A stretch of DNA of 64,000 nucleotides from a virus (taxonomy: Duplodnaviria; Heunggongvirae; Uroviricota; Caudoviricetes): positions 1 through 64,000 of IMG/VR virus record IMGVR_UViG_3300033273_000374, one strand, 5' to 3'. The translations under genes were made by a program, and so were the position numbers. How positions within the stretch are numbered: the stretch's first letter is position 1; every line of letters begins with the position of its first letter. This document shows, piece by piece, positions 10,668-44,303 of the stretch. The notes below the pieces were generated by a model, which worked only from the letters and a program-made list of their open reading frames with translations, made no database searches and was not told where the DNA came from.

Positions 10668-11041
10668 CGATATTCGCTACGCCCGTTGCCTAAATCATTG
10701 CGCTCTACCCTAGCATTAGGATCAGCCATTTCTTTTTCGTATGTTTCCATAACAACATTGCGGCATACATCTTGGAACCAACGATCTACCATGTCCTCTT
10801 CGTTTTCATCTCTGTAGCCTGCTTTGTACAGTTTTTTAATAAAGATTTCATTCCAGTCTAGTTCAAATGCACCGCTGCCCGGATTGTCAGGATCAACTTC
10901 AACACTCAGCACTGCCACATAAGCTTCACCCTTTTCTGTGGCAATTTCTTTGTCTGTTTTCTTTTTGCGTGGCTTAGATTGCGATACTTTTTTAGCAGCA
11001 CCAAGTCCAATTGCTTTTTTAGCATCATCTAGTATGCCCAT
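10664..11041 (-). CDS. hypothetical protein (125 aa)
   Basis: ORF track; overlapping stop/start with neighbour. Confidence 0.5.
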   Translation of the reverse strand: MGILDDAKKAIGLGAAKKVSQSKPRKKKTDKEIATEKGEAYVAVLSVEVDPDNPGSGAFELDWNEIFIKKLYKAGYRDENEEDMVDRWFQDVCRNVVMETYEKEMADPNARVERNDLGNGRSEYR

Positions 11042-11119
11042 TACATACCTGCCTTTCTCATTTTATCAATGTCTATTGGTTCTTTCATGGCCTTCTTGTG
11101 TGCTTCGTTAGCATAGTTT

Positions 11120-12013
11120 TTAGGTTCCCCAGGCATTTCCAAATAGGCTAATGTGGAGTCTTGGAGTAAATCTCCATCCTCTTTCCATACAGGCTTCTGC
11201 CACGTCTTTAACGTTGAGGGAATATTCTTCACTGCGTCCGCCCATTGGCATAAGGTAGACCGGACACTGGACTCCGGCGTCCCTATAAGCGTCCACAGCT
11301 CTTGCAACTTCGTTGAAATCATCCTCACTAGCGACAACAAACTTGAGATACATGTCACTACCGTCAACAAGGCTATACTCACGAGCAACAGCAGGCAAGA
11401 TAGCAGTTTCCCAAGGTTCTCCGCTAACACTAAGTTTTGGGGAACAACTCCAAGTGACTGTAAATCTGTCTTGGTCGTTGAGATAATTGAAGAAATCGTC
11501 GTGTAACTCTTGTGTAGTGTTTGTTTCAAATGTGACATTTTTCAAATCCTTCATACGTGGATGCTCAAATAAATCTATGTAGAGCTTTTGCCAAGCTAAC
11601 AAAGGCTCTCCGCCGGTTAATATTAAATGAATATCTTGACCATTGTCTTGTGTCCATTTACCATTGGGAGCAAGTGATAGCAAATGTTCAACCACTTCAT
11701 CTACTTCTGCAAGTTTATTAAAGTGTTTAAACTCTGGGTAGATACTTGCATATGTATCACACCCTGTGTGAATAATAGGCAAGTCGTTAAATTCTTTTGT
11801 AGTTTCATGTACGCCTGCATCAATAAGTGCTTTTACTTCTGCATTGTATCGCTGACCTTCTTTGTGTTGTTCCCAGCGATCTTTTTTTGTATCAACTCCA
11901 AAGTTCATACAACGGAAGTTACAACCAAATGTGCGTAAAAATACACTAGGTACTCCTACAAACTTGCCTTCGCCTTGTACACTGTAAAATGCTTCGCTGT
12001 ATCTAAGTTTCAT
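11120..12013 (-). CDS. queE: radical SAM 7-carboxy-7-deazaguanine synthase QueE
   Basis: N-terminal YSVQGEG motif and the C-x14-C-x-C cluster (FGCNFRC....) typical of QueE. Confidence 0.85.
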   Translation of the reverse strand: MKLRYSEAFYSVQGEGKFVGVPSVFLRTFGCNFRCMNFGVDTKKDRWEQHKEGQRYNAEVKALIDAGVHETTKEFNDLPIIHTGCDTYASIYPEFKHFNKLAEVDEVVEHLLSLAPNGKWTQDNGQDIHLILTGGEPLLAWQKLYIDLFEHPRMKDLKNVTFETNTTQELHDDFFNYLNDQDRFTVTWSCSPKLSVSGEPWETAILPAVAREYSLVDGSDMYLKFVVASEDDFNEVARAVDAYRDAGVQCPVYLMPMGGRSEEYSLNVKDVAEACMERGWRFTPRLHISLFGNAWGT

Positions 12014-12071
12014 TTGTGGCTTCCTATTAACTGCTTCATACGATGGATAACCTTTTTCATATACTGGTCAT

Positions 12072-12914
12072 TCAAACGTCTGTTTCATAGATTAATTCTC
12101 TTAATTGTGTTGTTGTTTTGGGCCATTCATTTAGTCCATAACATTTTATTTCATAACCTTCAATTCTAAGTCTGCGTTGCATGTCTGCTTCATCTAATAA
12201 AGATAAGTCTTTCATTTCTATGTTAATATTGTTTATTGTAGCATAAACAAGTTCTTTAATCAATCTATCTTTGTACAAATAAGGTTCGTTGGCTAACCAG
12301 TCTTTACCTAATACTTCTATCTCTTCTGTAGATCGAACAACATCTAGATCTAAAAATTTAGCCATAGATCGAAATGAGGTTACAAAATTATCTCTTATCC
12401 AATTGATAGGAAATTTAAAAACACGGTCGTTGTTGTAGTTTACAATTTGTTCATAACCGCCTTCTGAGTTGTGTTGATTGTACCACCACAGACTTAACCA
12501 TTCCCTTTGCTCCCAAATATCGTCACCTTCCCATTGAGACAGAGCATTTTCACGATCTTGTGCAACACCTTGATTTTTAGTGTAAAACCCAATTTTGTAA
12601 AATTTATTACTAGCATTCCATAGGTAATCATTTGGTTCTGGATATAGTAGAACAATTTTATCATATACACCTAGTACTTTTTTTATTTGAACTATTATGT
12701 CATCACTTTGTGTACGCACAGGGTGTACATGTGAATTTGAGATAGGTTGAATTAAAGCCTCATCTACAGTTTCAAATTGAATTAAATCATTGTTGTGACT
12801 AGTATGTCTAGCAGTAAATGGTCTTTGTTCAACTGGATATCTGCCTGTCATCCAATCAATGCACCATCCAGTAAACGATCCGTAACTACCAGCGTTATAT
12901 ACAATTATATGCAT
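12072..12914 (-). CDS. paralog A of a tandem pair; P-loop/sulfotransferase-like N-terminal motif (NAGSYGSFTGW)
   Basis: 280 aa. The last ~25 residues (...GYEIKCYGLNEWPKTTTQLRELIYE..) are nearly identical to paralog B at the nucleotide level. Confidence 0.6.
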   Translation of the reverse strand: MHIIVYNAGSYGSFTGWCIDWMTGRYPVEQRPFTARHTSHNNDLIQFETVDEALIQPISNSHVHPVRTQSDDIIVQIKKVLGVYDKIVLLYPEPNDYLWNASNKFYKIGFYTKNQGVAQDRENALSQWEGDDIWEQREWLSLWWYNQHNSEGGYEQIVNYNNDRVFKFPINWIRDNFVTSFRSMAKFLDLDVVRSTEEIEVLGKDWLANEPYLYKDRLIKELVYATINNINIEMKDLSLLDEADMQRRLRIEGYEIKCYGLNEWPKTTTQLRELIYETDV

Positions 12915-12931
12915 TATTCGTTGCTGAATCT

Positions 12932-13116
12932 TTCTTTGTGTTGTTCCCAGCGATCTTTTTTTGTATCAACTCCAAAGTTCATACAACTGCTTCATACGAT
13001 GGATAACCTTTTTCATATACTTGCCATTCAAATGTTTGCTTCATAAATTAACTCTCTCAGTTGTGTTGTTGTTTTGGGCCATTCATTTAGTCCATAACAT
13101 TTTATTTCATAACCTT
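12932..13116. repeat. 185-bp duplicate of 11858-11913 (queE codons ~35-52) joined to 12032-12160 (paralog 3' end and flank)
   Basis: Direct comparison of the two regions. A 118-bp stretch (queE 5' end and start codon) present at the first locus is absent from this copy. Confidence 0.8.
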
Positions 13117-13882
13117 TGTTCCGTAATTGGCGTTGTATTTGACTTTCGTCAATCAACGATAATCCATCCATAAACAAATTTTTATTATTGATTATAGCAT
13201 CAACTAGATCAGAAATCAATTTATCTTTGTTAACAAATATTTCTCGTTGTAACCAGTCTCTGTAAAGACTGTTGATTTCATCGCTGTTGCGTACTACTTC
13301 TAGTTCTAACCAATTTGCTATGTCGCACACTGTAAATTGAAAATTATCTCTTATGTTACTTATTGGCACAGTTTTAACATATTGTTTGTTAAGATTGTTT
13401 ACCTCATTAATACCTGACCCAACTACAAATATATCATGTAACAAAAAACTAAGTTGTTCTCTTAACTCCCATAAATTGGTGCCTTCCCATTTGTCCTCGT
13501 TTACTTTAAGCATATCTTTTATGTATTGCTTGTTGAACAAACCATTTTTGCTTGCTTTTGAATTACAGTTATTCATAATCCAAATAAAATTATCTAACTT
13601 GGGATACAAATAGAGGACTTTATCGTATACAGTGTGTAAAAGTTCAATTTGTGACTGTAATGATTGTACACCTTCATACATTGGATGCACCAATATTCCG
13701 TTGTGAGCTAATTCACATGCTTTTTCAACAGTTTTAGGATGTATCCTAGTCCATCCATGACTATTGAATACAGTGTTACCTACAAATGGTCTATAATCAA
13801 CAGGATATTTTCCTTGTAACCATTCAAGGGTCCATCCAATAAAATTTCCGTATGCACCAGCTGGGAATGCCACAACGTACAT
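13028..13882 (-). CDS. paralog B of the tandem pair (PAGAYGNFIGW N-terminal motif)
   Basis: 284 aa. Moderate similarity to paralog A through the body; identical C-terminus. Confidence 0.6.
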   Translation of the reverse strand: MYVVAFPAGAYGNFIGWTLEWLQGKYPVDYRPFVGNTVFNSHGWTRIHPKTVEKACELAHNGILVHPMYEGVQSLQSQIELLHTVYDKVLYLYPKLDNFIWIMNNCNSKASKNGLFNKQYIKDMLKVNEDKWEGTNLWELREQLSFLLHDIFVVGSGINEVNNLNKQYVKTVPISNIRDNFQFTVCDIANWLELEVVRNSDEINSLYRDWLQREIFVNKDKLISDLVDAIINNKNLFMDGLSLIDESQIQRQLRNKGYEIKCYGLNEWPKTTTQLRELIYEANI

Positions 13883-14361
13883 TATAATTCAGTAAGTGTT
13901 TCTTTGCGTGTGAACCATGGTGTAAAGATTGCACTGTTTGCACCATGTTCGCTACATTCGCAACTTTCGCAACTTACACGGCCATCTGTTTGTTCACGCA
14001 CCAATTGATCTGCAAATCGCCATGCATGCTCTGCAAACTTCTCCGCACCAACACCATCTAGTATGGTAAGTTGAGCAAGTCCTTTTGCTTCTAGTTCTTT
14101 GAGATCATCTAGTTTAGGATCTGCACTGTCCAGTACAACCTTGTGATCAAATGTATCTTCAAGCCATTGTTTAAGTGGCTTGAGTCCTCCAAAGTCTTGT
14201 ACCCAGTTGCGATGATCAAGATCACTTGCAGCAAATACAAATTTAAATGCTAGACTGTAGCCATGTAAGAACCTGCAGTGTGAATGATCTGCATGTGGTT
14301 GACGAAACACTGCACTGAGTCCAATGTTGTGTCCATATGTTTTTGTTGAATAATGCGGCAT
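13882..14361 (-). CDS. queD: 6-carboxy-5,6,7,8-tetrahydropterin synthase QueD (PTPS family)
   Basis: CxxxHGH-type motif (HSHCRFLHGYS). T-fold size 159 aa. Confidence 0.8.
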   Translation of the reverse strand: MPHYSTKTYGHNIGLSAVFRQPHADHSHCRFLHGYSLAFKFVFAASDLDHRNWVQDFGGLKPLKQWLEDTFDHKVVLDSADPKLDDLKELEAKGLAQLTILDGVGAEKFAEHAWRFADQLVREQTDGRVSCESCECSEHGANSAIFTPWFTRKETLTEL

Positions 14362-14428
14362 AGCGGCCTACTCCTTTTGATGTAGGTCGGAATGTTTAAA
14401 GACGGACGATCCTATGACGTCTATGAGT

Positions 14429-14457
14429 ATTGTACACTTATTTAGACGGTTTTGCAA
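14429..14457 (-). promoter_or_regulatory. sigma70-like promoter TTGCAA-N17-TACAAT upstream of queD
   Basis: -35 at 14452-14457, -10 at 14429-14434. An AAAAGGAG SD precedes the ATG at 14361. Confidence 0.5.
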
Positions 14458-15007
14458 GTTTTTTCTCAAGAATATCTGTTTTTACTGCTTGGAATGCCAT
14501 AACACTACGCATTTCTTTGCATCTACGCTGTGGACCTTTTCCAATGTGTGGAATGCTGCTATCAAACACTACCAACTTGCGAGGAACATACACACTGGCT
14601 CTTACTAAATCGTCAAAGTAGAAAACAGTTTCTCCGCCCCAATTGAGTTCCCAAGTTTTGTCTGTGTACAGCACACCAGTTATGCTTTCTCCTGCACTTG
14701 GCCAATCTGTGTGGATATCACCATCTAACCCAAATGTGTTTGCACTGGCCATGTTACGCACCATGGTGTAACTGTCATCGCAAAACTGCTCCATAAAACG
14801 ATTGCCAAGAGTCTGTACAATGTCAGGGGCACTCTCATGGTAGTCACGTTCTTTAAGATAATAAAAGCCTTGGAACCACTGTGGGTAATTGGGTTCAATT
14901 TTGTTGTCACTGACTTGACCAAACTGCCAGCGGTTTGCATACACTACATGAAAAAACAGTTCTTTTTGTTCTTCTTCTGTTATCCAGTCCATGTGTTCTT
15001 CAAGCAT
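14438..15007 (-). CDS. Fe(II)/2-oxoglutarate-dependent oxygenase-like protein
   Basis: HxD...H arrangement (DIHTDW ... GGETVFY ... IPHIGKG). Confidence 0.5.
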   Translation of the reverse strand: MLEEHMDWITEEEQKELFFHVVYANRWQFGQVSDNKIEPNYPQWFQGFYYLKERDYHESAPDIVQTLGNRFMEQFCDDSYTMVRNMASANTFGLDGDIHTDWPSAGESITGVLYTDKTWELNWGGETVFYFDDLVRASVYVPRKLVVFDSSIPHIGKGPQRRCKEMRSVMAFQAVKTDILEKKLAKPSK

Positions 15008-15752
15008 CTGTTCTTACCCTTTTGTTGTATTCTACTGCTTCTTTGAGTATGCTCAATAGATTGGGATCATACTGTTTGGCTGTATACAATATTGCACTGG
15101 TATCTTTTGGTAAACAGTGTCCACCCCATCCACGCTCTTTGGTAACATAACTGTGGTCATCTAAAATGCGTTTATCAACACACAAGTGGTGCCTTACTTG
15201 ATCAAAATCTACACCTAATGTTTCACACAAGTCGTACATTTGGTTAAAGAAACTGACCTTTAGAGCAAGGAAACTATTTTCCATATACTTGATAACTATT
15301 GCTTCTCGCATGGTTGATTCATACGTTGCTAGAGCAGGCCATTTCTCTTTAAACATGTTGATCCAAAACTTTGTGTCGCCACCTCCCATTATAGCATACT
15401 CTTGATTTTCAAAATCCTCTATTGCTGTTGCGCCACGTAAGAACTCCGGCGAGAACGTTATTTTGTCACGATGCTTGAATTTTTCATAACATTCTAAACT
15501 AAAGGTGCTTTTAATTAGCACCGGAACATCCTCATCAACAGCTTCAAGTACTTCTATCACATTGTCGTAATTACACGATCCGTCTTCGCGTTCAGGTGTG
15601 CTTACTGCAATCACAACTGCGTCATATGCACTTTTGGTTGATGATAACGTGTGTCCTTGATCAGGATCAATTATGTCAAAATGATGCAGATCTTTGAATG
15701 CATGGAAAAATGCTTTACCTACGTACCCATAACCGTATAATCTTATCTTCAA
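15000..15752 (-). CDS. short (250 aa) UDP-glucose/GDP-mannose dehydrogenase-family protein
   Basis: N-terminal Rossmann GYGYVGKAF and catalytic-Cys motif GWGGHCLPKDT. Lacks the C-terminal UDP-binding domain length. Confidence 0.55.
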   Translation of the reverse strand: MKIRLYGYGYVGKAFFHAFKDLHHFDIIDPDQGHTLSSTKSAYDAVVIAVSTPEREDGSCNYDNVIEVLEAVDEDVPVLIKSTFSLECYEKFKHRDKITFSPEFLRGATAIEDFENQEYAIMGGGDTKFWINMFKEKWPALATYESTMREAIVIKYMENSFLALKVSFFNQMYDLCETLGVDFDQVRHHLCVDKRILDDHSYVTKERGWGGHCLPKDTSAILYTAKQYDPNLLSILKEAVEYNKRVRTDA

Positions 15753-22800: not shown

Positions 22801-23586
22801 CTACTCTTTCTTAGCACGTGGCTTGCGTGGTGCACGTGGCTTAGCCGGTGCTTTCTTAGCAGGTGCTTTTTTAGCAGGTTTTTCTGGTTCAGCCTTTGGC
22901 TTAACTTTCTGATTACCTGTTAGATATTGTGGTACTGGTTCAGCAGGAACCTTACTTTGGAGCCATTTGAGCAACACCCCATATGCAGGAAGGAACACTA
23001 CCAATCCTACTACGACCTTAGTAAGGGTATTGTTCTGTGCTACAATGTGCCAGTTTTCACCAATCCATGTTAACTTACCATCTGGTCCTGTTGCACCTGC
23101 AAATGCAACAAAGAAGAATGAATAAGTGTCAATGATATTAGCAGCAATAGTACTAATAGCAGGTGCTGCCCACCATGCTTTTGAATACTTTTCACGAATG
23201 TGTTGGAACACATACACGTCAAGCATTGTGCCAATAGCATAAGCAGTACCACTTGCAAAACCTACGCGATACGCATGTGAATCGCCAAGTGCAAGCAACA
23301 CAAGCACTGAAGCAACAATAGCAGGAATAACTGCCATTGCAACAACTGCTCTACCTGCTTCTTTACCAACCATACGCACTGTAAGGTCTGTGGCAACAAC
23401 TACAATTGGAAATGTAAATGCTGCTGCCGCTAGTGGAAATGATCCAAACAAAGGTAACTCTGCACCTGGGAATAAATCAAATCTAATTGTAACCAAGTAG
23501 TTTGACACAGCAATAACTAGCGTGTGTAAAATAACTAGATTACGAACAAGTGTTTTATCAACACCTTCTAGAAGTTTATTGAACAT
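22801..23586 (-). CDS. yhhQ: YhhQ/DUF165-family queuosine-precursor transporter with a Lys/Ala/Pro-rich basic C-terminal tail
   Basis: Polytopic membrane protein with an FPIVVVATDLTVRMVGKEAGRAVVA block resembling YhhQ. Tail KKAPAKKAPAKPRAPRKPRAKKE. Confidence 0.6.
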   Translation of the reverse strand: MFNKLLEGVDKTLVRNLVILHTLVIAVSNYLVTIRFDLFPGAELPLFGSFPLAAAAFTFPIVVVATDLTVRMVGKEAGRAVVAMAVIPAIVASVLVLLALGDSHAYRVGFASGTAYAIGTMLDVYVFQHIREKYSKAWWAAPAISTIAANIIDTYSFFFVAFAGATGPDGKLTWIGENWHIVAQNNTLTKVVVGLVVFLPAYGVLLKWLQSKVPAEPVPQYLTGNQKVKPKAEPEKPAKKAPAKKAPAKPRAPRKPRAKKE

Positions 23587-24504: not shown

Positions 24505-25185
24505 TCATCTTTTACAAGCATTTACAATGTTCATAAACTCGTTGCGAACTGCCGGATCTTCTTTGAAACAACCGCCTAGTTTGCTGGTAACAGTTGATGA
24601 TCCCACATCTTCAACACCGCGACTCTTAACGCAATAGTGTTGTGCGTCAACAACAACTGCAATGTCGTCTGTGCCTAGAATGTATTGTAGTGCGTGATAA
24701 ACTTGTTCTGTTAGGCGCTCTTGGATTTGAGGACGTTTAGAAAAGTATTCTACTACACGGTTTAGTTTAGATAGACCTAGTACTTTGTCTTTAGGAATGT
24801 ATGCGACTGTAGCAATACCATCAATGACAACGAAGTGATGTTCACAGTTTGATTGGACATTGACATTACGCTCAATAACCATCTCATCGTATTTCATCTT
24901 GTTGTCTACGGCTGTACACTTTGGAAATGCTTCGTAATCGAGTCCCCAGAAGATTTCGTTAACATACATCTTTGCAACACGCTTGGGTGTTTCGATCAAA
25001 CTATCGTCAGTTAGATCCAATCCCATAATCTTCATAATCTCGGTAAAATGACTTTCAATTTTCTCAATCTTGTCTTTGCGATTAATACCGTTATCAATAA
25101 CTGGAGTTTCTACACCGCACTTTACTAGGTGTTTGTGAACTTCGAGACCCAAAACAGGGTCAGTCTTTGTTTTATTATATGCCAT
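24505..25185 (-). CDS. folE: GTP cyclohydrolase I FolE
   Basis: CEHHFVVIDG ... KLNRVVEYFSKRPQIQERLT ... VVVDAQHYCVKSRGV conserved blocks. Confidence 0.85.
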   Translation of the reverse strand: MAYNKTKTDPVLGLEVHKHLVKCGVETPVIDNGINRKDKIEKIESHFTEIMKIMGLDLTDDSLIETPKRVAKMYVNEIFWGLDYEAFPKCTAVDNKMKYDEMVIERNVNVQSNCEHHFVVIDGIATVAYIPKDKVLGLSKLNRVVEYFSKRPQIQERLTEQVYHALQYILGTDDIAVVVDAQHYCVKSRGVEDVGSSTVTSKLGGCFKEDPAVRNEFMNIVNACKR

Positions 25186-26633: not shown

Positions 26634-27151
26634 TCGTGTCCTGTTACCTGTAGAGTGTATCTTGGTTCAAGTCCAATGTTAGCAGCCATGTGTTCAACAT
26701 CTCCTCTCCACCAAATGTAATCGCCGCGCTTCCAACTAACAATCGGATTGCCTGCTATTTCAAAATAATGTCCTGATTTCCAATTTTCTAAGAACACTAT
26801 AATACGTTGAATTTGATTTACTTCTACATCAAATAGTTGTCTGTATTTTTTATAAGTGTCTCTGTGTGTGGGTAAAACTACGCCTGTAGGCATTCTATAA
26901 AAACTAGTGCCTGTATTTTTAAGTCCGTATATGTTTTTCAACATTTGCACTAGATCGTTTGTATAACCTGTTTGTGGTTTACGCATATCACATAGATCAC
27001 CTACAAAAGGCGGAGTGTAGCCTTGTACTGTCCACGTATCTATATCTTGGGAATTATTAAAGGGCTCAGACTGATAATCAAGGTCTATGTGACTATCGTC
27101 CCAAAAAGGATCTATATAGCCTATGTGCCAGTTACTATCGTGTGTTGCCAT
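26630..27151 (-). CDS. cupin/Fe-oxygenase-like protein, paralog 2 (173 aa)
   Basis: PTHRDT ... VEHMAANIG. Shares the WK(P/S)GH(F/Y)..(D/E) block with paralog 1. Confidence 0.35.
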   Translation of the reverse strand: MATHDSNWHIGYIDPFWDDSHIDLDYQSEPFNNSQDIDTWTVQGYTPPFVGDLCDMRKPQTGYTNDLVQMLKNIYGLKNTGTSFYRMPTGVVLPTHRDTYKKYRQLFDVEVNQIQRIIVFLENWKSGHYFEIAGNPIVSWKRGDYIWWRGDVEHMAANIGLEPRYTLQVTGHE

Positions 27152-28418
27152 AATGTATTACCTTACTTGCTTCGCTGTTAAATTTACGCCATGGATCTAC
27201 CACAATGCTATCCATTGGTATTGTACAATACAAACTGTCTGTGTTACTGTCTTGGTGCATGTATTTGTAGGTTGTGCTTGCACTATGTGCTAATAACATT
27301 ACACAAGATTGTTTAGGTTCATTATTGTCTCCAGTCAATGGATCAATGTATGTTACACTTTTGCCCATTTCCTCAACATAATGACCGATCAATAAACTAT
27401 AACTTCCATCAATGTATTCTACACCAGGCTTGTATGCTTTGCCATGTATATAAATTTCCATTGCATTTTCGTCTGCAAGTTTTACTAACAGTTTAGCAAG
27501 GTTGTGTGCTTGCTTTTCTCTTGCATTCATTATAGCGTCAAATAAATCATATCCTAAATCTAATTCTTGTGCCATGTAGCGCAAGGCAATATTGTCACGC
27601 GGATGGCAAGCACCACCATCACCCATCCCTGCAGTCATATACTGCGGGCCCATGATCCGTTTGGTTGACTCTGCTAGTGCCTGGGTAACCACATCAACAT
27701 TGATATTGCCCTGCTTTACTGCCACATCCTGTATCATGTTTGCCAGTCCAATTTTGGTACTGATAAATGTGTTGTAAAACACTTTGATACATTCGCATTC
27801 GTCCCAAGTACCAACAACATACCTGGGATCATTTTCAATTACTGTTTTATAAAAGTCTACTAATAGTTGTGCATCACCTGTGGTAGTGCCATCTTCAGTA
27901 CCAACCATTACCATTTCAGGATTTAAAAAGTCCCATGCAACACTGCCCATAGCAATCAAGTATGGGTTGTATGCAAAACGTGTGTTTGTTATCAGTGGAA
28001 CAAATTCTCTGCGAACTGTGCCCGGAAGCACTGTAGAGATAAGCACAATCATTTGTGCATTGTGCATGTGTTCGTTACACTCACGCAATACTTGTTTTAC
28101 AATGTCGTAGTTAAAATCTTTAGGTTCAAGATGTGCAGTAGGCACACGACCATCATAACTTGCTTCATGCGGAGTTGGCACTGCTACAAAAACAATCTTA
28201 GAAAACTCAACTGCTTGTTTGATAGTGTCTACGATGTTTACATATTCACTTGAAACTGGTGCAACATCGTAACCTTTGACACTGTGTCCTTTTTTTGCCA
28301 TTTCCTCTGCACATGGCATTCCAAGTTTTCCGCAACCTATAAAAGCAATATTCATTGTGATGTGTACCATTTGTATGCAGTACGGATTATACTGTCTAAA
28401 TCGTGATTTGCTTTCCAT
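27135..28418 (-). CDS. ugd: UDP-glucose 6-dehydrogenase-family nucleotide-sugar dehydrogenase; probable start at MNIAFIG (28355)
   Basis: Rossmann IAFIGCGKLG and catalytic Cys motif GGACHPRD. Full three-domain length. Confidence 0.8.
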   Translation of the reverse strand: MESKSRFRQYNPYCIQMVHITMNIAFIGCGKLGMPCAEEMAKKGHSVKGYDVAPVSSEYVNIVDTIKQAVEFSKIVFVAVPTPHEASYDGRVPTAHLEPKDFNYDIVKQVLRECNEHMHNAQMIVLISTVLPGTVRREFVPLITNTRFAYNPYLIAMGSVAWDFLNPEMVMVGTEDGTTTGDAQLLVDFYKTVIENDPRYVVGTWDECECIKVFYNTFISTKIGLANMIQDVAVKQGNINVDVVTQALAESTKRIMGPQYMTAGMGDGGACHPRDNIALRYMAQELDLGYDLFDAIMNAREKQAHNLAKLLVKLADENAMEIYIHGKAYKPGVEYIDGSYSLLIGHYVEEMGKSVTYIDPLTGDNNEPKQSCVMLLAHSASTTYKYMHQDSNTDSLYCTIPMDSIVVDPWRKFNSEASKVIHYGNTR

Positions 28419-29299
28419 TTTAGGATGGTGTTGGCTGCAACAGTATCTGCTACAAGTGTACCAGGATCTCCTGGTCTAGGATCACCAAATTTTAGATCTA
28501 CTGAGAGAGGAGTAACACGGTTAATACTGTCAATAATCTCGAGATTGCTGTAGCCTCTTTCGCCACCTAAATTGAAAGTGTGTGCACCATTAGTCGTTTC
28601 TAACAGTTCAATACTATTTAGCACACCACGTGCCACATCCTCAACATGCACATAATCACGCACACAAGTTCCATCTGGCGTATCAAAGTTGTTACCAAAC
28701 AGTGTAAAATCTTTGCCAGCCATGGTGCGCTCTATGGCTTTTGCAATGATGTGAGTTGCATTGGGTTCTTGACCAAACTCGCCCTCAGGATCTGCACCTG
28801 CAACATTAAAGAAACGCAAACTTACACTGTTGAAATTGTATGCATGTGCGTAATCATTGAGTATGATTTCCATCATGCGTTTACTCCAACCATATGGGTT
28901 GCAAGGAGTATGAGGCATGTTTTCTGCACAAACATCTTCTTCTGGTTCACCGTAACAGGCTGCACTACTAGCAAACACAAATTTATCAATGCCTTTGTTG
29001 CGCACACTATCCAAGAGGTCAAGTGTTTGTGCAATGTTGTTTTGATAGTAAGGTGCAGGATCTATCACACTTGGTCCAACAAGACTGGTAGCACCTATGT
29101 GTACAACTGCATCTACACCATTAAACATATCATCACTGATATCACCATATGAGGTAAGTTGTACTTTGTCAAGGTAATTGTGTTTAATGTGTCTACGGTC
29201 AATTGCCACAACTTCGTACAGCAGACTTTTTAACATTTTGCAGACAGCAGAGCCAATGTATCCACCGGCTCCTGTTACCATTACTCTCTGTGCTGTCAT
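28352..29299 (-). CDS. galE: NAD-dependent nucleotide-sugar 4-epimerase (GalE-like SDR)
   Basis: VTGAGGYIGS Rossmann motif, the S...YxxxK triad (YGWSKRMME) and extended-SDR length. Confidence 0.8.
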   Translation of the reverse strand: MTAQRVMVTGAGGYIGSAVCKMLKSLLYEVVAIDRRHIKHNYLDKVQLTSYGDISDDMFNGVDAVVHIGATSLVGPSVIDPAPYYQNNIAQTLDLLDSVRNKGIDKFVFASSAACYGEPEEDVCAENMPHTPCNPYGWSKRMMEIILNDYAHAYNFNSVSLRFFNVAGADPEGEFGQEPNATHIIAKAIERTMAGKDFTLFGNNFDTPDGTCVRDYVHVEDVARGVLNSIELLETTNGAHTFNLGGERGYSNLEIIDSINRVTPLSVDLKFGDPRPGDPGTLVADTVAANTILKWKANHDLDSIIRTAYKWYTSQ

Positions 29300-30489
29300 G
29301 CTGTTGGATCCTTGTTGTATTTTGATTCTGCTACATGGTCTCTGTAACGATTACCACTGCGCTTCCATTTTTCACCTTTGCCTTCCATGATATCAAGCAT
29401 ACGATCAATGGTACCATCAGTCCAGTCACTGATCTTGCCCATGTTGTGACTGGGTGCTTCAAGTGCATTTAACACTTTGTCCATAGCATCACTCTTGTTC
29501 CATGGCACATACAATCTAGTGTAATCGTTTGCAAATGTTTCTGGAAAACTGCGATATGCAGGATATACAACATTACATCCAAGTGCATCTGCTTCGCTAA
29601 CAGTGTTGCTGACCCAGTCTTGTAACGCACAGTTAAACATAACCTTACTGTCGTTTACAATGTTGTAGTAGTCATTTTTCTGCAGATCTTTGTAGATTGT
29701 TAGCAGTCCGTGCTTTTCCATTTCTAAAGCACGATCCAAATAACGTTGATTGTTACTGCGTAATGGACCGCCACTGAGTACTGCACACTCAATGTTTGGA
29801 TTTACATTGCGTATCATCTGGATCAAGTCCATGTAGAAGTCTGGCTGTTTCTCTTGATCAAAACGTGCTGCAAATACAATTCTGTCTGCACGTTCACTCC
29901 AAGGCTTGATGTTGTTTCCAACACGCCCTTGCACTTCTGCCTTGCCAAAACTCAATCCACTGATGTTGTAGATAGGTGCAGTCCAATTTGCAATACGCAT
30001 GTGTGCTACCATTTCTTCGTTAGTAGCAAGAATATTTACATTAGGAATCTCGTTACACATCTGCTCATACAAGCTCATCCACTTGCTCATACCCCATACA
30101 TGCACAAAGTCATCTGGATCAACTGCTTGTGCTAAACAGCGCAAGTAGATTGTAGGACGTTGTGTGTATGGAATCTGACACATGATGTAAGGCAAACTTT
30201 CAATGCCAGGTTGGAACATGTCTTCAAAGAAAACAACATCCTGTCCAGAACATTCACCGTTGCGCATCATTTGTACAAGATTCATAAGTTGACTCATGCC
30301 AAAGTATGAACGTCCATGTGCGTCAAGTACTTGTCCTACGCTGATGCTTTTGGTGTTGTCAATGGTTTCACCAGGCACTACAACATAGTCTATGCCGCGA
30401 CGTTTAAAGACTTCTTCACTCCACTGTTGTAATTGTAGTGTGTAGCGTCCTTCGTACGGCTCAAGCCCCATGTAAAATAGTTTACGCAT
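29296..30489 (-). CDS. GT-B fold glycosyltransferase (GT4-like)
   Basis: 397 aa. C-terminal E-x7-E-like region and FAARFDQEKQP resemble the GT4 donor-binding region. No unique motif. Confidence 0.5.
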   Translation of the reverse strand: MRKLFYMGLEPYEGRYTLQLQQWSEEVFKRRGIDYVVVPGETIDNTKSISVGQVLDAHGRSYFGMSQLMNLVQMMRNGECSGQDVVFFEDMFQPGIESLPYIMCQIPYTQRPTIYLRCLAQAVDPDDFVHVWGMSKWMSLYEQMCNEIPNVNILATNEEMVAHMRIANWTAPIYNISGLSFGKAEVQGRVGNNIKPWSERADRIVFAARFDQEKQPDFYMDLIQMIRNVNPNIECAVLSGGPLRSNNQRYLDRALEMEKHGLLTIYKDLQKNDYYNIVNDSKVMFNCALQDWVSNTVSEADALGCNVVYPAYRSFPETFANDYTRLYVPWNKSDAMDKVLNALEAPSHNMGKISDWTDGTIDRMLDIMEGKGEKWKRSGNRYRDHVAESKYNKDPTA

Positions 30490-43221: not shown

Positions 43222-43455
43222 TTAACTATCTTTGTCGTAATCTTCTTTCCATACAAATGCACTTATGGGCAGTTTGTCGTAAAGAGCACCATATTCAGTA
43301 AGAAGTGTTTCTATGTATAATGCTTTAGCTTGTATGCTTCTAATTGAGATCCAAATACCAGGAGTGAGTTCGCCATGGCCTTTCTGATGATCATAAAGAT
43401 ATTCCTTCTTTACATAAACTTCAATTGGTGGTAAATTGTGAACTAAAAAGGCCAT
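43222..43455 (-). pseudogene. truncated 77-codon duplicate of the 5' end of the 41178-41858 gene
   Basis: Roughly 85-90% nt identity to 41625-41858. The reading frame ends exactly where the LamG-like gene RBS begins. Confidence 0.5.
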
Positions 43456-44303
43456 TATTTTGTTTCAACCTTATCCCAATGTGTATAAAAGGGTTGATCT
43501 TCAAATGTAGGGCACATTCTGCATATACTGTGTGGCTTTGCATAGTTGTCTATCCAAGCCTGTATGTCACTGTCGCTGTCTTCTATGCCAACGCCATTGT
43601 AATCCAAGTATGGTTTCCAATCTGGATCATTTATCAGAAAGTGATCACCTAACACCTGTTCTAACAGTGCAACACTGCTACACTTGTATAACCTACCTTT
43701 ATACAACAATGGACAGTAGGTTTGTGAACATTGCTTGTGTGCTTCAACAGGATCATTATCATAGGGCTTCATATCATAATAACTAGTGCCACGCCAAGAA
43801 CGTGTGAATCTATTGCAGCGATCTATTGTAAACACCAATTGATAATCATTGTTGCGATACTGTTCAAAGTCATCTTCTATTTGCACAGGTTCCCATGCAA
43901 CATTATCCATTACATCTTTTATAGCATTGTGTATGTATTCTTCATTGGGCTGATGCACACTAAACTTTAAATGAACACTGCCCATGTCTTTGATAAAATC
44001 TATAAAGTTAGGCCAGCGATGCCACTGTGTTGCGTTGGTTACTAGCATCACACTCTTTTGTAGTTTGACTTGTGTTTCACGCATGAATGTTTTTAGTTCA
44101 GGATTGATCATGGGTTCGCCACCAATGAAACCCATACAGTCTATTTCTATGCGTTCATTCCAAGCATCAAATACAGGTGCAAAGTCTGCATAGCGCAAAC
44201 TGCCCTTCATGTGATAGTCACTGTAGTTGGTACAGTTTTGGCACGCCAATGTGCATGCATTAGAGATCATGGTCTCTAAGTAAGGTAGAAATGGTTTTGT
44301 CAT
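43455..44303 (-). CDS. radical SAM protein of unknown specificity
   Basis: CTLACQNC matches the CxxxCxxC motif near the N-terminus. Additional C-terminal Cys pairs (CPLLYKGRLYKC, CRMCP). Confidence 0.7.
   Translation of the reverse strand: MTKPFLPYLETMISNACTLACQNCTNYSDYHMKGSLRYADFAPVFDAWNERIEIDCMGFIGGEPMINPELKTFMRETQVKLQKSVMLVTNATQWHRWPNFIDFIKDMGSVHLKFSVHQPNEEYIHNAIKDVMDNVAWEPVQIEDDFEQYRNNDYQLVFTIDRCNRFTRSWRGTSYYDMKPYDNDPVEAHKQCSQTYCPLLYKGRLYKCSSVALLEQVLGDHFLINDPDWKPYLDYNGVGIEDSDSDIQAWIDNYAKPHSICRMCPTFEDQPFYTHWDKVETK

Follow-up and report, generated by a model that had tools for sequence, protein, structure and literature searches.

We identified, in the 113 nucleotides (nt) between two adjacent paralogous genes of an uncultured phage, a composite sequence that is probably the scar of a microhomology-mediated illegitimate recombination that stacked two alleles of an exchangeable cassette gene. 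The paralogs, A and B, lie between queD and queE in a 64,000-nt stretch of DNA (positions 1 to 64,000 of the IMG/VR record IMGVR_UViG_3300033273_000374, a virus of the Caudoviricetes), the whole of which we refer to as the window. The scar itself is most likely without function, and the mechanism, an ordinary one, is familiar from the evolution of phages. Scars that keep both breakpoints of an illegitimate recombination are, however, rarely so legible in uncultured phage genomes, and this one documents, at single-base resolution, how a gene that relatives only swap can come to be present in one phage in two divergent copies.

Anatomy of the scar

The elements of the scar and the genes that frame it are, in the order of transcription:

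13882-14361, minus strand: resident queD (PTPS family, 159 amino acids (aa); Pfam PF01242, expectation value (E) 1.2e-13)
13028-13882, minus strand: paralog B (284 aa), read here as the B-type allele of the cassette gene
12985-13116, minus strand: conserved tail of B (last 29 codons and stop) with a 43-nt remnant of a QueE leader, a copy of 12029-12160
12915-13027, minus strand: gap between paralogs B and A, 113 nt
12985-12987, minus strand: junction J2, a GTT microhomology (3 nt) and the point of a 118-nt loss, located by alignment
12932-12987, minus strand: stranded queE fragment, codons 34-52, a 56/56 copy of 11858-11913
12932-12938, minus strand: junction J1, a CAAAGAA microhomology (7 nt) that fuses queE codons 50-52 in frame to a queD tail
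12914-12938, minus strand: foreign A-type queD 3' end, ...(K E) R F S N E and stop, within a 49/49-nt identity to locus L013
12072-12914, minus strand: paralog A (280 aa), read here as the A-type allele of the cassette gene
11120-12013, minus strand: resident QueE-like radical S-adenosylmethionine (SAM) gene (297 aa; phrog_2076, E 4e-53)

The scar has three parts, joined at two microhomologies. The first is the tail of B and what follows it. Aligned with 12029-12160, which comprises the last 29 codons and stop of paralog A and about 43 nt downstream, it spans 132 nt with 9 mismatches (93% identity), all of them within 12066-12104. On either side of this mismatch zone the two sequences agree completely, over 37 nt (12029-12065) and 56 nt (12105-12160). 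The second part, the stranded fragment, derives from the resident queE and matches QueE residues 35-52 at 100% (tblastn); its coordinates take it from the final two bases of codon 34 through codon 52. An exact direct repeat of 56 nt within 1.1 kb excludes chance. Where these two parts meet, at J2, the scar copy is without 118 nt of the A-side sequence (one GTT and 11914-12028), which hold the end of the leader or spacer, an AGGAAG ribosome-binding site, the queE ATG (12013) and codons 1-33. The loss shifts the reading frame. The two copied segments, the second of them assigned to the region 12032-12160, and the absence of 118 nt with the queE start had been recognized in an initial annotation of the window, and the alignments bear them out.

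The third part is the end of a queD gene of foreign origin. At J1, the queE codons CAC-AAA-GAA are joined to the queD codons CGC-AAA-GAA, and from CAAAGAA onward (window positions 12938 down to 12890) the sequence equals that of L013, one of the family loci described below, at 49/49 nt, through the queD end and into the first 25 nt of the A-like gene. The tail ...RKERFSNE that precedes A is the same in L005 and L013 and unlike that of the resident queD (...RKETLTEL). Both queD stops overlap the start of the paralog that follows them as TAATG, the foreign one with A and the resident one with B. Because the queD tail before A is foreign to the resident gene, the arrangement is not a plain duplication of resident sequence.

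The initial annotation had proposed a tandem duplication of a unit running from the paralog start to queE codon 52, followed by a small deletion. Homologous units do stand head to tail, both on the minus strand (42% aa identity, E 9e-76), and a novel junction joins queE codon 52 to the last codons of queD; the further loss of 118 nt stands as well. The unit, however, begins inside queD, and its RFSNE tail is not resident sequence. A common resident origin of the two units also fails on their divergence. The number of synonymous substitutions per synonymous site (dS) between A and B is 1.43, a saturated value, as against 0/56 changes in the queE remnant.

Alleles, tails and leaders at the queD-queE slot

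Profile-guided scans yielded 83 loci of the family to which A and B belong, labelled L001 and so on. Single-protein scans of IMG/VR gave no match, the alignment-based scans alone being successful, and neither megablast with a 5.2-kb region nor tblastn with paralog A found a match among GenBank phages. About 40 of the 83 loci share the gene order oxygenase-queD-family gene-queE-p125-DUF6071 (p125 being a 125-aa open reading frame (ORF)), each with one family gene. Among the loci compared, the internal queE fragment repeat occurs in the window only.

Paralog B is closest to the gene of L004 (90% aa identity) and to those of L001-L003 (81-82%), and paralog A to those of L012 and L029 (89%) and L013 (74%). 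The relatives of A (L012, L029 and L013) and those of B in L001-L003 sit alone behind queD. A and B are therefore not diverged duplicates, as the initial annotation had them, because each has closer relatives in other genomes (89-90%) than it has in the other. Nor are they long-diverged in-place duplicates, because the saturated dS stands beside a non-coding remnant with no change in 56 nt. Both are intact and carry every family-invariant residue, and the ratio of nonsynonymous to synonymous divergence (dN/dS) from the nearest relative is 0.30 for A and 0.44 for B (against the L004 gene), values that mark purifying selection.

Comparisons between other loci reveal the same discordance between the family gene and its surroundings. 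In L005 and L053 the oxygenase, queD, queE, p125 and DUF6071 products are 92, 80, 92, 94 and 88% identical, and the family gene 44%. The family gene of L014 is 43% identical to that of L053, with queE at 96%, and that of L043 is 41% identical to that of L052, with flanks at 85-94%. Synteny is thus fixed with one variable occupant, whose similarity does not follow that of the backbone. The window itself agrees with L001, a B-only genome, at 98-99% protein identity in queE, p125 and DUF6071 (99% aa for QueE). The downstream breakpoint falls at codon ~251 in the window and again in the comparison of L012 with L001; the upstream edge falls somewhere inside queD. Conserved flanks of this kind suggest that alleles are swapped by homologous recombination between related phages, and A and B are, on these comparisons, alternative occupants of one operon slot. 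An apparent diverged tandem duplicate can, accordingly, really be two stacked alleles.

The contrast between moderately similar bodies and near-identical tails, noted in the initial annotation, is borne out. Nucleotide identity between A and B per 20-codon block is 33-72% through the body; at codon ~251 it jumps from ~50% to 93-100%, and in the tail it is 95% and then, over the last 9 codons, 81%. Ongoing gene conversion had been offered as the cause. Yet two separate single-copy genomes, L012 (A-type) and L001 (B-type), have tails that are 97-100% identical over the last 29 codons, third positions included, and 100% identical over the last 9, beside bodies at 33-82%, mostly 35-70%. The tails are, therefore, not more alike within the window than between genomes, and gene conversion within a genome is not needed to explain them. 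In the close sub-population of the window, the allele upstream makes no difference to the DNA of the tail. We assign the tail to the shared backbone because the next gene has its ribosome-binding site and start codon there. The other cause that had been suggested, a recent mosaic recombination, comes close to what the data show. For genome scans the lesson is that near-identical tails beside divergent bodies need not mean gene conversion.

At the protein level, the family hardly varies in its C-terminal motif GYEIKCYGLNEWPKTTTQLRELIYE, whereas exact identity of the tail DNA is confined to the close sub-population of the window. We also considered an embedded DNA or RNA element that would conserve the tail across the family and rejected it, as the codon identity at positions with the same residue is 0.62 in the tail and 0.65 in the body (31 family genes).

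The stretch between cassette and queE, taken in the initial annotation for a simple 3' flank, is instead what is left of an N-terminal leader of QueE. A 25-codon leader is open and in frame with queE in L006, L014 and L032, and the loci differ in this spacer at third codon positions of a frame, EKGYPSYEAVNRK, that likewise reads in phase with queE. In the window, a nonsense codon breaks the leader on the A side (TGG to TGA, 12068-12070), and queE is served by a ribosome-binding site and ATG of its own. With the leader open in relatives and interrupted here, this apparent intergenic spacer is decaying coding sequence. The short reading frames of the region are:

12014-12088, minus strand: A-side QueE leader remnant, which starts at an ATG inside the Y-E codons of A, is in frame with queE and reads MKQTFE-stop-PVYEKGYPSYEAVNRKPQ-MKLRY
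13044-12979, minus strand: B-side leader ORF, MKQTFEWQVYEKGYPSYEAVV and stop, open until J2
12914-12982, minus strand: 22-codon mini-ORF, MNFGVDTKKDRWEQHKERFSNE and stop, made of the queE fragment and the queD tail, its stop forming part of the TAATG at which paralog A starts

On the B side, the stop of the leader frame (TGA, 12981-12979) overlaps an ATG (12982-12980) as ATGA, this ATG being the internal Met36 codon of the queE fragment.

The stretch where the family gene meets queE is demonstrably plastic, with fused forms, long-leader forms and inserted small genes in relatives. The codons for QLRELIYE at the end of the family gene hold a purine-rich AGAGAR stretch and, within TATGAA, an ATG. 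This ATG is the actual start of queE in L005, L013, L029, L030, L048 and L053, where the family stop overlaps the queE start, and the start of the 25-codon leader in the three loci where that leader is open. In the window, the ATG within the Y-E codons lies 75 nt upstream of the queE start. Recurring TATGAA(A/G)C motifs suggest repeated small duplications and deletions at this junction. It is also a hotspot for insertions in relatives (L001 1039-1203; gaps in L035, L038, L040, L043 and L052; a gap of 934 nt in L015/L034). The inserts include a 54-aa ORF with a weak MazE/AbrB-like match (E 0.009), a small MazG-domain protein (E 1.7e-5) and a ClpP protease (E 4e-64) together with a MazG-like ORF. 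The 54-aa ORF, present in L001 and L004, has no counterpart in the window. The queE gene is itself mosaic: between the window and L005, L014 and L053 it is 73-74% identical, with the flanking p125 at 88-94%, and the divergent stretch includes the VDTKKDRWEQHKE segment that is copied into the scar.

A second, independent tandem pair occurs in L004 (1-1199; on the same contig as L050), in reversed order, A-like then B-like. There, a partial A-like gene, 71% identical to A and ending ...LIYKEA, is followed directly by a B-like gene, 90% identical to B, the two overlapping at ATGATG; the pair is without a queE or queD scar and is followed by the 54-aa ORF and then queE. Distant family members (22-31% identity; L055, L062, L064, L082, L060 and L018) lie in phage contigs without queD or queE. 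Several of these are tandem or nearby pairs, and a multi-copy arrangement may be a general habit of the family.

Origin of the scar

We propose that the two alleles were stacked in the following manner. In this lineage, one variable gene (~280 aa) occupies the fixed position in the operon between queD and queE, its ends anchored by the overlap of its start with the queD stop (TAATG) and by its last ~29 codons, which carry the ribosome-binding site and start of queE or its leader. Related phages would swap very different alleles by homologous recombination at these conserved flanks. In an ancestor, a strand that ran through a B-type cassette and 52 codons of queE would have been joined to the last queD codons before an A-type cassette, at the CAAAGAA present in queE and queD in the same codon phase. 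The product would have read queD-B-leader-queE(1-52), then queD tail-A-leader-queE. The extra queE start would have been lost through a second junction at GTT, either as part of this event or subsequently.

The order and number of these events we infer from the alignments, which allow three routes. In the first, (a), an unequal illegitimate crossover at CAAAGAA between a B-type and an A-type genome would have preceded the 118-nt deletion at GTT, a loss that would have been larger had the B-type parent carried the 54-aa ORF of L001 and L004. In another, (c), a single event with two template switches during recombination-dependent replication would have made both junctions. One or the other of these seems most economical, though the present data cannot decide among them and an intragenomic route, (b), taken up below.

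Some observations count against an origin from two parents. The C at position 38 of the fragment is common to the scar and the resident queE, the corresponding base being G in L001, L002 and L004 and A in L029. Likewise, the 37-nt leader piece is identical in both copies, and L001 and L004 differ there. Both features fit copying within one genome at least as well as they fit two parents. Further, the nearest sampled A-type and B-type relatives are only ~89-93% identical in nucleotides, so the parental genomes are not identifiable. Exact searches returned 0 matches to J1 in the metagenome contigs and IMG/VR and 0 matches to J2 in IMG/VR and the 83 loci; the window's own contig is not part of these collections, so the evidence for both junctions is a single assembly. 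No intermediate that retained the 118 nt was found in these junction searches.

Route (b) takes up these identities and is possible, if clearly the less likely origin. An A-type genome would have undergone an A-A tandem duplication at CAAAGAA and the 118-nt deletion, and its upstream copy, including the end of queD, would then have been replaced by a B-type allele acquired from another phage through homologous recombination, with crossovers in queD and in the conserved tail or leader. In its favor are the C at position 38, found in no sampled relative, the leader piece in which the B-type L001 and L004 differ, and the clear frequency of allele replacement at the queD-queE slot. It requires, on the other hand, one more event than a heteroallelic crossover, and its support amounts to one nucleotide and 37 nt from three distinct relatives. 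Its end product is the same as that of the crossover, and present data do not separate the two.

A separate question is whether the scar was selected as a relay of translational coupling, in place of the coupling to queD that A has lost. The tail of B would provide the ribosome-binding site and ATG of the 21-codon leader ORF, which would hand over through ATGA to the 22-codon ORF and through TAATG to A. The chain of overlapping ORFs is present exactly as this requires, most single-copy loci start the family gene in a TAATG overlap with queD, and no obvious Shine-Dalgarno sequence directly precedes the ATG of A. Expression of both genes could, from the layout of the frames, run in just this way, and the 22-codon ORF may be translated. 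However, about one-third of random deletions would keep frame and coupling anyway, overlaps such as ATGA and TAATG are common in AT-rich DNA, and the arrangement occurs in one genome only. The short ORFs may be a relay toward A or, equally, a coincidence, and selection for such a relay seems unlikely to us. Scans of 11000-15200 for promoters and terminators also returned nothing above chance, the counts being equal to those expected from shuffled sequence. Two sigma-70-like matches on the minus strand lie at equivalent sites in the two paralogs (13191-13219, TTGATT-17-TATAAT with TG, 10/12; 12235-12263, TTGATT-17-TACAAT, 9/12). They coincide with raised synonymous conservation at codons 211-230, in a total match count not above chance.

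An artefact of assembly, in which a mixed A-type and B-type population was collapsed to a chimeric contig that passes the variable slot twice, is very unlikely. An A-type and a B-type locus, L029 and L004, do come from the same sample (Ga0181592), and neither junction is in any other contig searched. Yet graph assemblers, from the way they work, would join sequences at shared k-mers, and J1 and J2 share 7 and 3 bases. The piece from inside queE stands between leader and queD tail, so reads should have spanned the junctions. Besides, a read is longer than either exact repeat (56 and 37 nt), neither gene is broken and the frame is kept across the fusion at J1. Hardly credible, finally, is an old tandem duplication in which the bodies diverged while continuing gene conversion kept tails, flanks and queE fragment alike: it would account for homologous genes head to tail and for the rise in identity from ~50% to 93-100% at codon ~251, but not for A and B being far closer to single-copy relatives than to each other, for an unchanged non-coding 56-mer beside a dS of 1.43, for the foreign queD tail before A, or for tails that are more alike between L012 and L001 (last 9 codons 100%, as against 81% in the window).

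The cassette gene, its setting and known systems

The window comes from a large uncultured marine phage with a 7-deazaguanine precursor pathway. A protein-database search gave an exact match to paralog A on a 203-kb JGI contig; look-ups of the exact A and B proteins found neither on record. All genes around queD and queE lie on the minus strand, in the order oxygenase, queD, paralog B, the 113-nt gap, paralog A, the queE-like gene, p125, DUF6071 and a 5'-3' exonuclease. The resident QueE-like protein matches the phrog_2076 profile ('QueE-like radical SAM domain'; E as listed above); it scores 33-48 bits against the NCBIfam QueE equivalogs (cut-offs 200-300) and under the cut-off of Pfam Radical_SAM. 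The DNA polymerase, of the T4-type family B, is at most 51% identical to those of GenBank phages, the best matches being Sinorhizobium phage Phosso and Agrobacterium phage Atu_ph07. The further genes that bear on the pathway and its operon are:

14438-15007, minus strand: 2-oxoglutarate-Fe(II) (2OG-Fe(II)) oxygenase
22801-23586: Vut_1/YhhQ-type transporter (PF02592, E 4e-20)
24505-25185: FolE, GTP cyclohydrolase I (PF01227, E 3e-62)

FolE and the transporter lie ~10 kb away from queD and queE, and neither QueC nor DpdA/TGT was seen among the ~40 ORFs of the window that were scanned. Elsewhere, the regions 27135-30489, 15000-15752 and 43455-44303 hold a cluster of sugar-nucleotide genes (for a uridine diphosphate (UDP)-glucose dehydrogenase-like protein, a nicotinamide adenine dinucleotide (NAD)-dependent epimerase/dehydratase and a group 1 glycosyltransferase), a further UDP-glucose dehydrogenase-like gene that adjoins the oxygenase, and a gene for a second radical SAM protein. 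A 165-aa ORF that overlaps queE in another frame (11041-11538, minus strand) is probably spurious.

Neither paralog has a match in Pfam, PHROGs, NCBIfam or PADLOC, and the family profile has none among PDB sequences. The family is large, with 616 clusters at 50% identity (E <= 1e-3). The AlphaFold model is confident (predicted local distance difference test score (pLDDT) of 92.3) and has the sulfotransferase fold, with TM-scores of only 0.3-0.4 against sulfotransferases dependent on 3'-phosphoadenosine-5'-phosphosulfate (PAPS). Membership by sequence does not follow, as there was no Pfam Sulfotransfer, NCBIfam or PDB sequence match. The loop after strand 1, read by eye as P/N-A-G-x-Y-G-x-F, is without the Lys and Thr of the PKxGTTW phosphosulfate loop. 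The cassette gene thus represents an uncharacterized family with a predicted sulfotransferase-like fold. A hypervariable cassette of this kind, wired into the queD-queE operon in this lineage, is a by-product of the analysis that may outweigh the scar.

We attach little confidence to a bolder reading in which the cassette gene is a new enzyme of the 7-deazaguanine pathway. Its product, of sulfotransferase fold and tied by translation to its neighbors queD and queE, would decorate a deazaguanine intermediate or modified DNA, an arms race with host restriction or defense would have made its substrate-facing regions hypervariable, and stacked alleles (in the window and, reversed, in L004) would be adaptive by giving two modification specificities. 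If so, the scar would record how phages build multi-allele arrays.

Phage clusters for 7-deazaguanine DNA modification encode FolE, QueD, QueE, QueC and DpdA (Hutinet et al., 2019, PMC6884629; Cui et al., 2023, PMC10516641). Like them, the window encodes FolE, QueD and a QueE-like radical SAM enzyme, along with the Vut_1/YhhQ-type transporter. Unlike them, it has the sulfotransferase-like cassette between queD and queE and no QueC or DpdA among the ORFs scanned. A search of Cui et al. (2023, PMC10516641) for the term 'sulfotransferase' gave 0 matches, and the cassette gene is not mentioned there. The cassette gene also differs from the PAPS-dependent sulfotransferases (SULT, StaL/Teg and tyrosylprotein sulfotransferase), to which it has no match at the level of sequence.

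The recombination itself has closer precedents. In T4-type phages, tandem duplications and deletions arise by illegitimate recombination at short homologies, the classic rII duplications being the example. The window, whose polymerase is of this type, has the same head-to-tail novel junction over a few bases of homology (here 7 and 3 nt). Here, however, the units are 42%-identical alleles and not copies of one another, and a queD tail foreign to the genome forms the upstream edge of the second; the event would have joined two allelic contexts, or an allele replacement came after it. Mosaic phage genomes are explained, in the model associated with Hendrix, by illegitimate recombination and selection, with homologous exchange at conserved linkers. 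Consistent with this model, the loci described here have near-identical backbones with divergent alleles, and the exchange edges lie in the conserved queD end and the last 29 cassette codons. The linkers differ in that they are overlaps of coding and regulatory sequence, and not intergenic boundary sequences or stem-loop cassettes. Template switching at microhomologies, as in fork stalling and template switching (FoSTeS) or microhomology-mediated break-induced replication (MMBIR), has been described mainly in eukaryotes and bacteria. The scar resembles its products in having two close microhomology junctions that enclose a short templated segment (here 56 nt of queE). It differs in that a single event is only one possible reading, inseparable from a duplication followed by a deletion.

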